Source: Escherichia coli (GTDB lineage: Bacteria; Pseudomonadota; Gammaproteobacteria; Enterobacterales; Enterobacteriaceae). From it: DNA of 64,000 nucleotides. The notes under the pieces were generated by a model that saw only the letters and a program-made list of their open reading frames with translations, had not been told where the DNA came from and did not search any database. The translations under genes and the position numbers were made by a program. The stretch lies in the NCBI RefSeq assembly GCF_050920415.1, contig NZ_CP169309.1. One strand, given 5' to 3'. Below are positions 20,604 through 54,799 of this stretch, piece after piece. The number at the start of each line of letters is the position of its first letter. Within the stretch, counting starts at the first letter, position 1.

Positions 20604-22271
20604 GTGGCTCAATTCGTTTATACCATGCATCGTGTCGGCAAAGTTGTTCCGCCGAAACGTCATATTTTGAAAAACATCTCTCTGAGTTTCTTCCCTGGGG
20701 CAAAAATTGGTGTCCTGGGTCTGAACGGCGCGGGTAAGTCTACCCTGCTGCGCATTATGGCGGGCATTGATAAAGACATCGAAGGTGAAGCGCGTCCGCA
20801 ACCGGATATCAAGATTGGTTACCTGCCGCAGGAACCTCAGCTGAACCCGGAACACACCGTGCGTGAGTCCATTGAAGAAGCGGTTTCTGAAGTGGTTAAC
20901 GCTCTGAAACGTCTGGATGAAGTGTATGCGCTGTACGCCGATCCGGATGCCGATTTTGACAAGCTGGCCGCTGAACAAGGCCGTCTGGAAGAGATCATTC
21001 AGGCTCATGACGGTCATAACCTGAACGTTCAGCTGGAGCGTGCGGCTGATGCGCTGCGTCTGCCGGACTGGGACGCGAAAATCGCTAACCTTTCCGGTGG
21101 TGAGCGTCGTCGCGTGGCGTTGTGCCGCCTGCTGTTGGAAAAACCAGACATGCTGCTGCTCGACGAACCGACCAACCACCTGGATGCCGAATCCGTAGCG
21201 TGGCTGGAACGCTTCCTGCACGACTTCGAGGGCACCGTGGTGGCGATTACCCACGACCGTTACTTCCTCGATAACGTTGCAGGCTGGATCCTCGAACTTG
21301 ACCGCGGTGAAGGTATTCCGTGGGAAGGTAACTACTCCTCCTGGCTGGAGCAGAAAGATCAGCGTCTGGCGCAGGAAGCTTCACAAGAAGCAGCGCGTCG
21401 TAAGTCGATCGAGAAAGAGCTGGAGTGGGTACGTCAGGGAACTAAAGGCCGTCAGTCGAAAGGTAAAGCACGTCTGGCGCGCTTTGAAGAGCTGAACAGC
21501 ACCGAATATCAGAAACGTAACGAAACCAACGAACTGTTTATTCCGCCAGGACCGCGTCTGGGCGATAAAGTGCTGGAAGTCAGCAACCTGCGTAAATCTT
21601 ACGGCGATCGCCTGCTGATTGACTCCCTGAGCTTCTCGATCCCTAAAGGGGCGATCGTCGGGATCATCGGTCCGAACGGCGCGGGCAAATCAACACTGTT
21701 CCGTATGATCTCTGGTCAGGAACAACCAGACAGCGGCACCATCACTTTAGGTGAAACGGTGAAACTGGCATCTGTCGATCAGTTCCGTGACTCAATGGAT
21801 AACAGCAAAACCGTTTGGGAAGAAGTTTCCGGCGGGCTGGATATCATGAAGATCGGTAACACCGAGATGCCAAGCCGCGCCTACGTTGGCCGCTTCAACT
21901 TTAAAGGGGTTGATCAGGGTAAACGCGTTGGTGAACTCTCCGGTGGTGAGCGTGGTCGTCTGCATCTGGCGAAGCTGCTGCAGGTTGGCGGCAACATGCT
22001 GCTGCTCGACGAACCGACCAACGACCTGGATATCGAAACCCTGCGTGCGCTGGAAAACGCCCTGCTGGAGTTCCCGGGCTGCGCGATGGTTATCTCGCAC
22101 GACCGTTGGTTCCTCGACCGTATCGCCACACACATTCTGGATTACCAGGATGAAGGTAAAGTTGAGTTCTTTGAAGGTAACTTTACCGAGTACGAAGAGT
22201 ACAAGAAACGCACGCTGGGCGCAGACGCGCTGGAGCCGAAGCGTATCAAGTACAAGCGTATTGCGAAGTAA
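20604..22271 (+). CDS. ettA: ABC-F family energy-dependent translational throttle protein EttA
   Basis: 555-aa ORF with two ABC ATPase cassettes, matching K-12 EttA (YjjK). Confidence 0.95.
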   Translation: MAQFVYTMHRVGKVVPPKRHILKNISLSFFPGAKIGVLGLNGAGKSTLLRIMAGIDKDIEGEARPQPDIKIGYLPQEPQLNPEHTVRESIEEAVSEVVNALKRLDEVYALYADPDADFDKLAAEQGRLEEIIQAHDGHNLNVQLERAADALRLPDWDAKIANLSGGERRRVALCRLLLEKPDMLLLDEPTNHLDAESVAWLERFLHDFEGTVVAITHDRYFLDNVAGWILELDRGEGIPWEGNYSSWLEQKDQRLAQEASQEAARRKSIEKELEWVRQGTKGRQSKGKARLARFEELNSTEYQKRNETNELFIPPGPRLGDKVLEVSNLRKSYGDRLLIDSLSFSIPKGAIVGIIGPNGAGKSTLFRMISGQEQPDSGTITLGETVKLASVDQFRDSMDNSKTVWEEVSGGLDIMKIGNTEMPSRAYVGRFNFKGVDQGKRVGELSGGERGRLHLAKLLQVGGNMLLLDEPTNDLDIETLRALENALLEFPGCAMVISHDRWFLDRIATHILDYQDEGKVEFFEGNFTEYEEYKKRTLGADALEPKRIKYKRIAK

Positions 22272-22282
22272 TGCGTAAAATG

Positions 22283-22313
22283 CCGGATGCGGCGCGCCAG
22301 CATCGCATCCGGT
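22283..22313. terminator. REP-like hairpin between the convergent ettA gene and the toxin-antitoxin operon
   Basis: gccggatgcg...cgcatccggt inverted repeat directly after the ettA stop codon. Confidence 0.5.
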
Positions 22314-22326
22314 AATAGTTAAATGA

Positions 22327-22611
22327 TTAATGGGAGGCAAGTTCCCGGAAAAAGGCAGGATTTTCTTTAATTGTGGCAAGTACTTTTGCAGCCAATCCCG
22401 TAGGATTTCTTCGCTTCGATTCCCAGCTTTTAATGGTATCCACACTGGTTCCCAGAGCTTTTGCCATCTCACTTTGCGAAACGTTGAGTTGCTCACGAAT
22501 AGCTTTAACATCCGCAATTTCGTAGCGGGTCACCCGTGCAGGTTCTTTTAAACCTTGTTTAATCTCGACAGCCTCTTCCAGAGAGGTTTTCAACTCATCA
22601 AAAAAACTCAT
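22327..22611 (-). CDS. XRE-family HTH antitoxin (HigA-like) of a type II toxin-antitoxin pair
   Basis: 94 aa from the ATG at 22611 (MSFFDELKTSLEEAV...); helix-turn-helix segment NVSQSEMAKALGTSVDTIKSWE; GAGG ribosome-binding site; start codon 1 nt after the toxin stop; absent from K-12 at this position. Confidence 0.7.
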   Translation of the reverse strand: MSFFDELKTSLEEAVEIKQGLKEPARVTRYEIADVKAIREQLNVSQSEMAKALGTSVDTIKSWESKRRNPTGLAAKVLATIKENPAFFRELASH

Positions 22612-22612
22612 T

Positions 22613-22944
22613 TTATACCTCACCTTTGAGCAGTTTCGTCAACTTCTTTAGTTGAGCTTTTTCCGTATCTGTCAGACTGTCTTTGGCATTCTTCGGATAG
22701 GCCATAATCAAATAAATAATCTCTTCCGTCGCCAGAAAGTAAATTATTCTGACACTACCACTTTTTCCCTGTGAACCCGCAGCCATTCGGACTTTACGCA
22801 ATCCACCAGTCTGCTGAATGAGATCACCTTTATCGGGAGTTCCGATGAGTTCTTTTTGCAATTCCTTTAATTCATCATCGGTTGCAATCTGCTTGATCTG
22901 ACGCGTAAACATTGGCGTCTCTATAAATATTATCGCCTTGCCCA
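22613..22944 (-). CDS. RelE/ParE-superfamily toxin (HigB-like) of a type II toxin-antitoxin pair
   Basis: 110 aa from the ATG at 22944 (MGKAIIFIETPMFTRQIK...RIIYFLATEEIIYLIMAYPKNAKDSLT...); small basic protein encoded immediately upstream of an HTH gene in a 2-gene operon; the ORF-track call 22613-23023 has a 26-codon upstream extension that I do not accept. Confidence 0.7.
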
Positions 22945-23036
22945 TTACCCTTCCCTGGCAGGTACATTGTACACCAAAATGGAGTACTAAGTACACTTTT
23001 GAATCAGTAATATCACTCAACATCTTATAAAGATGA

Positions 23037-24269
23037 TTATCCCTGCTCCCCCATCATCTCCCGCACCAACTCCACGCAGCGCAGGAAACGGCTGTCGTAA
23101 TCGTCCTCTTCAACCCGCACAAATTCGATATTGTTCTCTTCCAGCATTTCCACCAGCAAGTTCTGGAACTCTTTGCGATCCACCGAACTGCCGAGACTGC
23201 GTAAACCATCCGCCACCCACGGCGTGTTGTTCTCCAGCAGAATCACCAGATCAAAACGGTATTCATCGATCAGCGCCTGTACGAACGGATGCTCGCGCCC
23301 TTCGTACTTTTTGCAGAACGCCTGAGTTGTCACAAAATCGGTGTCGATAAACGCCACTTTATTGGCATATTTTACTGCAAAATCAATATATTGAGCGTGT
23401 CCAAGTGCGATTTTATCGTAGTCGGAATACTGCAATGCGATCTCATCGCCGCCAAGATGTGAAAAGACATAATCGCGACCATATTCCCATGCACTGGTAG
23501 TGTTGAAGATATTGGCAAGTTTGTTTACCAGGGTGGATTTACCGCTCGATTCGCCGCCGAGGATCGCCACGGTGCGCACAAAGAACGGCTTCACTTCGGT
23601 AGGAATATATTCCCAGTAGCGGAACGGATTTTCGCGGATCTGCGCACCACTGATACTCATAAAAGTACGTTTCGGATCGACCAATACCGTTTCGATCCCC
23701 AGATGTTCCATATACTGCGGCGCGTCGGCTTCTTCCGAGGTGTAGATCAGATCCGGCTGGATCCCTTTTTCAGCCATAAACTTTTTGATGCCGTTGCTCC
23801 ACACATCCCAGCCATGCGGATACGGCTCCATGCCCTCTTCGTTGAATGCATGAATGCGAATATTTTTCTGATATTTAAAAGTTTGCAATAACCAGCGCAG
23901 ACGATCCGGCACCGTGGGCTGCTGCGACATGGCGCTGTCTTCGAACAACGCGCGGTCGCGGGTAGCGTCAAAGCCCATAATGATATGCAGCTCGTCAACC
24001 TGACTACAGGCACGCTGGATAAGGTAGATATGTCCGGTATGCAGCGGGTAAAACTTACCGAATACAACACCAATAGTTTTCTTCTGCCGGGGAAATTCAA
24101 GTCCCAAATAACGGTGCAACGCCTCCAGCTTTTGCGCGCTGGGGCTTTTAATTTTGGCATTCAGTAACTGGCTTAAATACCCTTTGGTCATACCGCTGGC
24201 ATCAGCCACCTGCTGTAGCGTACAGCCCTGTTGCTTGATGGCAGTTTTCAGATAATCAAATGACGACAT
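23037..24269 (-). CDS. nadR: trifunctional NAD biosynthesis/regulator protein NadR
   Basis: ORF 23037-24290 contains the K-12 NadR sequence starting MSSFDYLKTAIKQQG at the ATG at 24269 (410 aa). Confidence 0.95.
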   Translation of the reverse strand: MSSFDYLKTAIKQQGCTLQQVADASGMTKGYLSQLLNAKIKSPSAQKLEALHRYLGLEFPRQKKTIGVVFGKFYPLHTGHIYLIQRACSQVDELHIIMGFDATRDRALFEDSAMSQQPTVPDRLRWLLQTFKYQKNIRIHAFNEEGMEPYPHGWDVWSNGIKKFMAEKGIQPDLIYTSEEADAPQYMEHLGIETVLVDPKRTFMSISGAQIRENPFRYWEYIPTEVKPFFVRTVAILGGESSGKSTLVNKLANIFNTTSAWEYGRDYVFSHLGGDEIALQYSDYDKIALGHAQYIDFAVKYANKVAFIDTDFVTTQAFCKKYEGREHPFVQALIDEYRFDLVILLENNTPWVADGLRSLGSSVDRKEFQNLLVEMLEENNIEFVRVEEDDYDSRFLRCVELVREMMGEQG

Positions 24270-49116: not shown

Positions 49117-49761
49117 TTATCCTCTGCCGATAACCACCACTTTCCCGTCACCACCTTCATCACGGGTACTGATGTCCTGGGATATCCGTCGGGAACCAAC
49201 CAGCATTTCACCGTATGGCACCGGCACCGGATTACCCTGAGCAATCATATTGTCCAGCGAGGAAAAGTAGGTGTTCTGTCTGCCGTTATCCGTTGTCCGG
49301 TAATCCGGTGTTTTTGCCTTCGGGGCCAGCATCTGTGCCACCCCACCCAGCGCCATTGCAGTCCCCATGGCAAACATAATATTGCTGGCTGCAATACCGA
49401 TACCCGGCATCCAGATAGCTGCCGCAGCCAGCGCAACGCCAAGAACCGCCTGAAACACACCCCCACTTTTGGCTCCTTCAGTCCGGGGTACCAGATGAAT
49501 GACATCCCCCGGGCTCAGTGGCTCATGCAGTCGGGTCGATATCTGGTCCGGCGCAGTATCCTCACCGGCAATACGTACCCGGTACCAGCCTTCGGTCATC
49601 TGACGGCGGAATCCCGGCAGCTGCAGAGACAGCGCCCGGATGGCTTCCGCTGCCGTGTTCACATACAGGCTGAGGCGGCGGCCAAATCGTTGTAAATCCC
49701 CGTGAAGGCAGATGCGGACCAGTGGCGGTGATGCCAGACAGAATGCGTTCGTCGTTGCCAT
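49117..49761 (-). CDS. I: tail assembly protein I
   Basis: 214-aa ORF; ...ICLHGDLQRFGRR... and ...NTYFSSLDNM..QGN..PV.YGEM.VGSR resemble lambda gpI. Confidence 0.88.
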   Translation of the reverse strand: MATTNAFCLASPPLVRICLHGDLQRFGRRLSLYVNTAAEAIRALSLQLPGFRRQMTEGWYRVRIAGEDTAPDQISTRLHEPLSPGDVIHLVPRTEGAKSGGVFQAVLGVALAAAAIWMPGIGIAASNIMFAMGTAMALGGVAQMLAPKAKTPDYRTTDNGRQNTYFSSLDNMIAQGNPVPVPYGEMLVGSRRISQDISTRDEGGDGKVVVIGRG

Positions 49762-53947: not shown

Positions 53948-54799
53948 ATCTCACACCTCCAGGAATCCCCGCTGAAGCCATCATTAATGCGACATCATCC
54001 TCACTGACATCCACCACATCCGCAGAAGGTGAAATATCGCCCCCTCCTTCCCCACCAAACCGGATGCCTCCGGCAAGTCCTGCCGCTTTCTGCATCAGCA
54101 TTTTTTCCTCATCCGCCATCTCCGTCTGCTCTTCCTCACGCCGGGGGGCAAGCAGACTGAAGTCCGAGGGATACATATCCGGATCGCAAAAAAACAGGCT
54201 GAGTACGGTGTACGTCAGCCCGGAAAAATGCATATCCAGTTGGGTATCGTGAAAATAATGCGTGCGGTAAAAATGTCGCCAGTCGGCATATTCGGTGGAT
54301 GTCATCCCGGCAAGCATGGCGCGCCAGTCAGGCCTCCCCATCTCACGCGCCAGTCTGAGGGCAAAATTCAGCTCGCCGTCGAAGACTTTCCCGCAGAAAA
54401 ATCATCATCAGTAAGCGCATTATTTTTCTCCACTTCGGTGATATCCGTATCCACATGAACAGGCTCACTCATCCCGGACAGACGCAACACCACGTCTTCC
54501 GCCCGGGCAATGGCATCAGCAGGCCAGGTGGTCAGGACTTCCTGCTCAATCTGCATCACAGCCTCATTCATTGACGGTGACTCCGTTTTCTGCGGATGGT
54601 TATGCCACAGGGACATCGCCACCAGAAACGCCCCGGTTCTGACAAGGTCTTCCACGCTCACCTGCAGGTTGCCGCTGGCTTCAGACTCTTCTGCCCGCCG
54701 TTTCAGGAGGGCAAGATGCTCTATACGCTGCAGCGCAGACAGTTCGGAAAGGGTGACGGACACACCGTTATATTCAAATTCTTCTGTTTTCAGAAACAT
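53928..54799 (-). CDS. GT: tail assembly chaperone G-T fusion, made by programmed -1 ribosomal frameshift
   Basis: T reading frame (ORF 53928-54341) is open upstream to the G GGA AAG slippery heptamer near the end of G; shifting -1 there reads ...GKVFDGELNFALRLAREMGRPDWRAM... into the T frame. Confidence 0.8.
54368..54799 (-). CDS. G: tail assembly chaperone G
   Basis: 143-aa ORF between V and H as in lambda. Confidence 0.88.
   Translation of the reverse strand: MFLKTEEFEYNGVSVTLSELSALQRIEHLALLKRRAEESEASGNLQVSVEDLVRTGAFLVAMSLWHNHPQKTESPSMNEAVMQIEQEVLTTWPADAIARAEDVVLRLSGMSEPVHVDTDITEVEKNNALTDDDFSAGKSSTAS
54386..54392 (-). promoter_or_regulatory. programmed -1 frameshift slippery site G GGA AAG (G to G-T)
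   Basis: Plus-strand ctttccc; on the minus strand gcG GGA AAG in the zero frame of G, 6 codons before the G stop. Confidence 0.8.

Follow-up and report, generated by a model that had tools for sequence, protein, structure and literature searches.

The spacer between the convergent genes ettA and nadR of Escherichia coli raises the question of what it carries in strains where it is longer than in K-12, and of how the two states came to differ. The locus was analysed in a window of 64,000 nt, which is the whole stretch of E. coli DNA under study (NCBI RefSeq GCF_050920415.1, contig NZ_CP169309.1). Here the spacer holds what is in all likelihood an intact chromosomal type II toxin–antitoxin operon of the HigB2/HigA2 family, with a mechanism assigned by homology. 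Gene order, homology, conserved catalytic residues and a conserved palindrome are observed in the sequences themselves.

The flanking gene ettA (20604–22271, plus strand) converges on the operon, while nadR (23037–24269, minus strand, 1233 bp) lies directly upstream of the pair on the same strand; both were identified from their open reading frames and from RefSeq, which for ettA annotates an identical locus. With ettA ending at 22271 and the nadR stop codon at 23037–23039, the spacer extends over 22272–23036, which agrees with the 765 bp given in an earlier note made from the sequence alone. The two-gene minus-strand operon described there is likewise present, as a 110-aa ORF, a 1-nt gap and a 94-aa ORF. 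The toxin gene (22613–22945, minus strand) encodes 110 aa plus stop from an ATG at 22945, and the antitoxin gene, nadS (22327–22611, minus strand), encodes 94 aa plus stop. Only nucleotide 22612 lies between the toxin TAA (22613–22615) and the antitoxin ATG at 22611. The Shine-Dalgarno sequence GAGG, which the note had assigned to the HTH gene, is found at 22618–22621 on the minus strand, inside the last toxin codons and 6 nt before that ATG. A toxin-first order with an immediately downstream, translationally coupled antitoxin, as seen here from the 1-nt gap and the GAGG in the toxin 3' end, is the arrangement of HigB2/HigA2-type operons. A candidate ribosome-binding site for the toxin, the purine-rich GGGAAGGG, can be read on the minus strand at 22948–22955, and homologous loci have GGAG or AAGG at this position.

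The hairpin that the note had placed on the ettA side is located at 22281–22314, between the ettA and antitoxin stop codons, and is assigned to neither strand, with a predicted folding energy of -25.3 kcal/mol on the plus strand (z -3.0) and -20.9 kcal/mol on the minus strand (z about -3). Its 5' arm, AATGCCGGATGCGGCG, is identical to the canonical K-12 REP at this locus and its 3' half differs, so that by sequence it is REP-like or REP-derived; it probably acts as a 3'-end or terminator structure serving both convergent units. The hairpin and the palindromes discussed below were located by reading, folding and pattern search, and neither the short palindromes nor the REP hairpin were in the output of the repeat search at the settings used. 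A terminator scan of the 91 bp that separate nadR from the toxin gene returned no terminator-like site, so read-through from nadR is possible. A perfect 6-bp AT-rich inverted repeat, catctt-ata-aagatg (23021–23035), follows directly on the nadR stop codon, 5' of the toxin promoter region; it is below the strength of a scored terminator.

The two proteins

RefSeq labels the first protein a RelE/ParE family toxin. The profile search that the note had proposed for both proteins matched it to the Pfam RelE family PF06296 (5.9e-10), with a weak match to Gp49, PF05973 (0.0013, 19 bits), well below that to PF06296; no NCBIfam model matched the toxin above its cut-off. Among solved structures, the Vibrio cholerae HigB-2 chains are its sole significant relatives (E 7.5e-17), with 40% identity to V. 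cholerae HigB2 over 95 aa. Its AlphaFold2 model (pLDDT 84.9) retrieved eleven HigB2 chains first in Foldseek (E 8e-10 to 3e-7, TM 0.74–0.80), and Mycobacterium tuberculosis HigB1 and ParE toxins appeared only after these, at E of about 1e-2. The RelE/ParE-like toxin of the note is thus confirmed by family, by sequence match and by predicted fold, and the RelE/ParE-fold similarity whose absence the note had named as grounds for giving up this reading was found in the form of the HigB2 fold.

Alanine substitution of Arg51, Arg64, Tyr82 and Lys84 in V. cholerae HigB2 (VcHigB2) lowers its activity 170- to 3000-fold (PMC5416850). These residues align to R53, R66, Y83 and K85 of the toxin, which are invariant in an alignment of 28 family sequences including VcHigB2 and are the predicted active-site residues. 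The N-terminus of the toxin, MGKAII, differs from the family consensus MSHAIE. Sub-threshold matches to residues 14–96 of the toxin, namely to NCBIfam Crn1 (E 0.004, far below cut-off), to SSO2081 in the PDB (E 0.14) and to a PADLOC CARF model (E 0.0025), were considered as a possible Crn1 ring nuclease/CARF identity and set aside as probable noise. PADLOC assigned neither protein to a defence system. In phage records the toxin has only distant relatives, with 41–53% identity.

The second protein matches the NCBIfam model NadS, NF041265, over model positions 1–94 of 94 (182.6 bits, cut-off 60), and has a Pfam HTH_3 domain at residues 35–79 (6.1e-10). As a single sequence it aligns to V. cholerae HigA-2 in the PDB with an E of 2.2e-6, and a profile of 25 family members aligns antitoxin residues 3–92 to V. 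cholerae HigA2 (VcHigA2) with an E of 2.8e-9. The profile alignment takes in the N-terminal helix, FFDELKTSLEEA in the antitoxin and LFAELSSALVEA in VcHigA2. The VcHigA2 helix folds against the toxin, and a peptide of it is enough for neutralisation (PMC5416850). By sequence the antitoxin is therefore HigA2-like, with a predicted N-terminal toxin-neutralising segment (residues 1 to about 32) followed by a C-terminal XRE HTH domain (about 35–80). The XRE-type HTH protein of 94 aa proposed in the note is upheld by both the HTH_3 domain and the homology to HigA2. No function of NadS was found in the literature, and the name therefore appears to be positional only, an address on the E. coli chromosome.

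The characterised V. cholerae homologue is the source for attributing toxicity, neutralisation, mRNA cleavage and DNA binding to the pair; the literature searched gave no experiment on the E. coli pair, and on the locus or on NadS only the AIEC catalogue (PMC7232551) and a mention in a PIRT-seq study (PMC12350097). By this homology, the 110-aa toxin would be a RelE-like endonuclease that depends on the ribosome and cleaves mRNA at its A site. NadS would work as VcHigA2 does, with its N-terminal segment folding onto the toxin and inactivating it. A dimer of its C-terminal XRE HTH domain would bind two palindromes of the GGTGTAC-N3-GTACACC type that overlap the presumed promoter, and thus repress the operon.

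Predicted operator and promoter region

The palindrome gtacattgtaca, suggested in the note as an autoregulatory operator, is real, with its coordinates corrected from 22961–22972 to 22962–22973. It belongs to the proximal predicted operator, O1, at 22960–22976 (TGGTGTACAATGTACCT on the minus strand), which has the conserved motif GTAC-N3-GTAC as its core (22962–22972). The same motif analysis gives a distal predicted operator, O2, at 22982–22996 (GTGTACTTAGTACTC on the minus strand), and its core at 22984–22994 is a second copy of the motif that the earlier note had missed. The centres of O1 and O2 are 22 bp apart. A consensus promoter scan of 22946–23036 returned no minus-strand sigma-70 site; by eye, the best -10 candidate is the -10-like hexamer TACAAT inside O1 (22966–22971 in plus-strand numbering), which has a poor -35.

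GTACNNNGTAC occurs four times in the 64-kb window; shuffled sequences gave an expectation of 0.38, and none of them had as many as four. The only other GTAC-N3-GTAC sites in the window are located at 49575–49585 (GTACCCGGTAC) and 54203–54213 (GTACGGTGTAC).

The evidence for an operator comes from homologous loci in other genera, where the DNA 5' of the toxin gene is unalignable except for a single motif, GTAC-N3-GTAC. This motif lies at most 115 nt upstream of the toxin start in 41 of 45 such loci (5.2 kb of upstream DNA in total), compared with only four more sites in the 251 kb that make up the rest of these loci. Three of these four belong to the three loci that have no motif 5' of the toxin, where it is found directly upstream of nadS instead. 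The operator consensus is GGTGTAC-nnT-GTAC(a/t)C, an inverted repeat of 15–17 bp in which the centres of the 7-mer half-sites are 10 bp apart. A two-site arrangement with a spacing of 20–22 bp is also seen in Serratia, Enterobacter sp. and others (loci L004, L006, L010, L015 and L018). Across the family the recognition helix of the antitoxin, TSVDTIKSWExKRRNPTGLAAKVL, hardly varies, which fits an operator common to the members.

VcHigA2 binds a single inverted repeat, TGTACGC-N5-GCGTACA, that overlaps the -10 element (PMC11006873). Three of its four base-contacting residues are changed in NadS (R68 to D, E71 to K and N72 to S), and the spacing also differs, with N3 here against N5 between the 7-mers of the Vibrio repeat. 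Since contact residues and spacing both differ, the operator call relies on footprinting across loci and not on the Vibrio complex. On that comparison of sequences, it is very probable that the TGTACA-containing palindrome serves as the operator of the pair.

A variant of this regulatory region was observed in an Enterobacter MAG (L017:2887-3400), in Lelliottia nimipressuralis (L019:2887-3400) and in Pseudenterobacter timonensis (L050:2891-3400). These loci carry a LexA-box-like CTGT-N8-ACAG about 95–115 nt upstream of the toxin start and GTAC-N3-GTAC at about 3352, just 5' of nadS, and they have a longer gap between toxin and antitoxin. Such an arrangement suggests an SOS-controlled toxin accompanied by a separately autoregulated antitoxin.

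Mobility of the cassette and states of the E. coli locus

A scan of one genome per species gave 57 loci in other genera with toxin homologues of 48–82% identity, in Serratia, Enterobacter, Pectobacterium, Pantoea, Xenorhabdus, Photorhabdus, Yersinia, Halomonas/Vreelandella, Thioalkalivibrio and others, and in 56 of them a NadS homologue follows directly downstream. The same scan contained no Escherichia, Salmonella or Citrobacter representative with a close toxin homologue. Both genes show a dN of 0.10–0.29 with saturated dS, and a dN/dS of about 0.05–0.07 where it is computable. Neither ettA nor nadR (the latter looked for within 3 kb) stands beside the pair in any of the 57 loci, which indicates that the pair has been mobile on a longer time scale. 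As judged from these sequences, it is a conserved, horizontally mobile two-gene cassette.

In several loci from Halomonas/Vreelandella, Thioalkalivibrio and Xenorhabdus the toxin has decayed and the NadS match is full. The toxin match is truncated, split or frameshifted beside a full 94-residue NadS match in L053, L054, L056, L057 and L058; L048, also among the loci with a decayed toxin, has a stop inside the nadS frame. Decay of the toxin first, as seen in these six loci, is the usual pattern and runs parallel to the K-12 relic described below.

A cassette of toxin and NadS, with about 80% identity in the toxin, is also found on the Shigella boydii plasmid p600690_6 (6986 bp, MOBP), between the mobilisation genes and the replication-initiation gene (L065:1799-2417), and on about 25 other mobilisable plasmids of 4–7 kb. 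The hosts of these plasmids include Yersinia ruckeri, Citrobacter, Pectobacterium, Hafnia, Serratia, Klebsiella, Enterobacter and Shigella. Small mobilisable plasmids are a likely vehicle of the cassette, and it is possible that chromosomal copies cross-neutralise the plasmid-borne ones.

Within E. coli, three states of the locus were distinguished, the first two of them counted among 5426 complete genomes, with the full pair defined as at least 80% coverage of a 901-bp query. State A, the full pair, occurs in 673 of these genomes and is annotated in RefSeq as a RelE/ParE family toxin plus nadS; among the matches listed, four of full length are 97.7–100% identical and have both genes annotated. 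State B, the K-12-type spacer of 307 bp, occurs in 3764 genomes (about 69%). State C is a spacer of 120 bp that consists of two REPs with no trace of the pair, as in E. coli WP4-W18-ESBL-08 (L062:3573-3692) and Esc10 (L064:2501-2620). The state C strains share the EttA accession WP_000046754.1 with a record that matches the window at 100% identity throughout the 901-bp query, and their loss of the pair may therefore be recent or recombinational.

The comparison with K-12, which the earlier note had called for and which it expected to reveal an insertion in the present strain, gave a mixed answer. The K-12 spacer is indeed shorter, but it is not empty: it holds fragments of the pair, and the proposed polarity is therefore wrong. 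A stretch of 144 bp in the K-12 spacer is 94% identical to 22498–22641 of the window and corresponds to the last 9–10 toxin codons, the ribosome-binding site and nadS codons 1–38. Three REP elements stand in place of the 3' part of nadS, and on the other side the relic joins the nadR stop codon after 3 nt. Because it contains fragments of two genes, state B cannot be a pre-insertion state and derives from state A by deletion; on this sequence evidence, the K-12 spacer appears as a deletion derivative of the pair-bearing state. State C is state B without its third REP and without the relic, and the most economical order would be A to B to C. The cassette would thus already have occupied the ettA–nadR spacer when most of it was deleted in the lineages ancestral to K-12, and was presumably acquired horizontally at some earlier time.

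The K-12 relic forms a 55-aa ORF, MSFFDELKTSLEEAVEIKQGLKKPARVTRHEIEDAKAVVDRKRCSRRIRHSVLNA (L061:1582-1749; MG1655 NC_000913.3 4628581-4628748), which is homologous to 22498–22611 of the window and starts 34 nt after the nadR stop codon. Its residues 1–38 correspond to the N-terminal, toxin-neutralising segment of the antitoxin, and its tail is encoded by a REP element. The ORF has no annotation in the MG1655 record, and elsewhere PGAP annotates nadS, often as a pseudogene; in BL21 the relic has lost both start codon and reading frame. The K-12 nadS fragment was found by PIRT-seq to be expressed in BW25113, and has been reported to be co-conserved with nadR (PMC12350097). The chromosomal pair might act in anti-addiction against the plasmid cassettes of about 80% identity, with the 55-aa relic in about 69% of E. 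coli being a selected, expressed equivalent of the antitoxin peptide. This seems unlikely; if true, it would explain why exactly the N-terminal fragment of nadS survives and was detected as translated in BW25113.

Rival readings and comparison with known systems

The published label 'ParE-3' would make the toxin a gyrase poison of the ParE type and not an mRNA endonuclease. CDD does place it in the ParE_toxin superfamily (PMC7232551), and the ParE structures 8c24 and 7r5a are among its Foldseek matches (E 1e-2 to 3e-2, TM 0.53–0.56). However, that superfamily label spans RelE and ParE alike, the best matches in both sequence and fold are all HigB2 (E 1e-17 and 8e-10), and the four RelE-type HigB2 active-site residues are all kept. 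With no ParE match in the sequence searches of Pfam and the PDB, a gyrase poison appears extremely unlikely. It is also very unlikely that the HTH protein acts chiefly as an independent transcription factor tied to nadR and NAD metabolism, with the upstream ORF as an accessory or inactivated partner. The NCBIfam name NadS, the location of the pair just behind nadR in the same orientation, uninterrupted by a terminator, and the expression of the K-12 fragment and its co-conservation with nadR (PMC12350097) would all be in keeping with such a link. Against it, nadR is within 3 kb in none of the 57 loci in other genera, while a NadS homologue stands behind the toxin in 56 of them; the conserved palindrome precedes the pair itself; the toxin, with its catalytic residues intact, is under strong purifying selection; and the name, as noted, seems to reflect position only.

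A further reading takes the pair in this strain to be a decaying relic on its way to the K-12 state, with its toxicity attenuated or lost. The roughly 69% of complete E. coli genomes with only the 307-bp remnant, the E. coli genomes that retain REPs alone, and the loci L053, L054 and L056–L058, in which an apparently full-length antitoxin accompanies a toxin that is truncated or frameshifted, all point in this direction. Nonetheless, both ORFs are of full length here, the catalytic and DNA-recognition residues are conserved and both operator copies are intact; moreover, the 901-bp query is matched over at least 80% of its length in 673 genomes, with 97.7–100% identity in the four full-length matches listed. 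Decay is accordingly regarded as quite improbable, and an intact operon of the HigB2/HigA2 family is the preferred reading.

The pair is an ordinary and already known type II module, which is annotated in RefSeq, has been catalogued, and belongs to a family that is structurally and biochemically characterised. Its weight as a discovery is small. What is added here is the assignment to the HigB2/RelE family, an operator consensus, and the recognition of the K-12 spacer and its 'nadS' as a relic of the pair, and three modest by-products follow. The published label 'ParE-3' should read HigB2/RelE-type. The predicted operator, GGTGTAC-N3-GTACACC, is a concrete one, footprinted across more than 40 loci in other genera. 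Lastly, the recently noticed small K-12 gene 'nadS' corresponds to the N-terminal stump of the present antitoxin, which bears on how that small protein is interpreted.

The catalogued counterpart is parE-3/yiaG-2 (TA30), which an in-silico survey lists on a genomic islet of the AIEC strain NRG857c that is shared with CFT073 and absent from K-12 and HS (PMC7232551). TA30 occupies the same locus between nadR and ettA, with genes of 333 and 285 bp. The catalogue differs from the present account in calling the toxin ParE and in taking the 307-bp K-12 spacer as lacking the two genes, whereas here the toxin is of the HigB2/RelE type and the spacer contains a relic. The cassettes of the Enterobacterales MOBP plasmids also have genes of 333 and 285 bp with a 1-nt gap, toxins of about 80% identity and GTGTAC-N3-GTAC upstream. 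In contrast to the chromosomal pair, those cassettes (for instance on S. boydii p600690_6 and the 5.2-kb plasmids of Y. ruckeri) are plasmid-borne, presumably for plasmid maintenance. The short, probably plasmid contigs L007, L008, L013 and L020–L022 have a single operator copy, whereas the window has two.

With regard to characterised systems, the HigBA-type arrangement proposed in the note stands as far as a toxin-first order with an HTH antitoxin is concerned, but the family is that of V. cholerae HigB2/HigA2 (PF06296) and not that of Proteus Rts1 HigBA. Proteus vulgaris Rts1 HigB/HigA shares with the pair the toxin-first order, a RelE-superfamily toxin and an HTH antitoxin. Its toxin is of a different subfamily, and the present toxin has only the weak match to Pfam Gp49 (0.0013). 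P. vulgaris HigB has no C-terminal helix and is distantly related to HigB2 in structure, and P. vulgaris HigA neutralises its toxin differently (PMC5416850). Acinetobacter baumannii HigBA2 was considered as a characterised relative and dropped, as, according to its authors, the toxin has a Gp49 domain and resembles the Vibrio HigB toxins only slightly.

The closest likeness is to HigB2/HigA2 of the V. cholerae superintegron (PDB 5JA8, 5JAA and 8A0X), which is also a toxin-first operon. The toxins share 40% identity, the four active-site residues and the fold, and have similar lengths, 110 aa here compared with about 110 aa for the chains in the PDB. In both antitoxins a neutralising helix at the N-terminus precedes an XRE HTH at the C-terminus. 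The V. cholerae operon has an inverted-repeat operator with TGTAC that overlaps the promoter, and the predicted operators here would be its counterpart. The antitoxins are otherwise weakly similar (E 2e-6), with three of four base-contact residues different. Furthermore, a single TGTACGC-N5-GCGTACA in V. cholerae compares with two predicted copies of GGTGTAC-N3-GTACACC here, and an integron cassette with a pair that lies in the chromosomal spacer between ettA and nadR.
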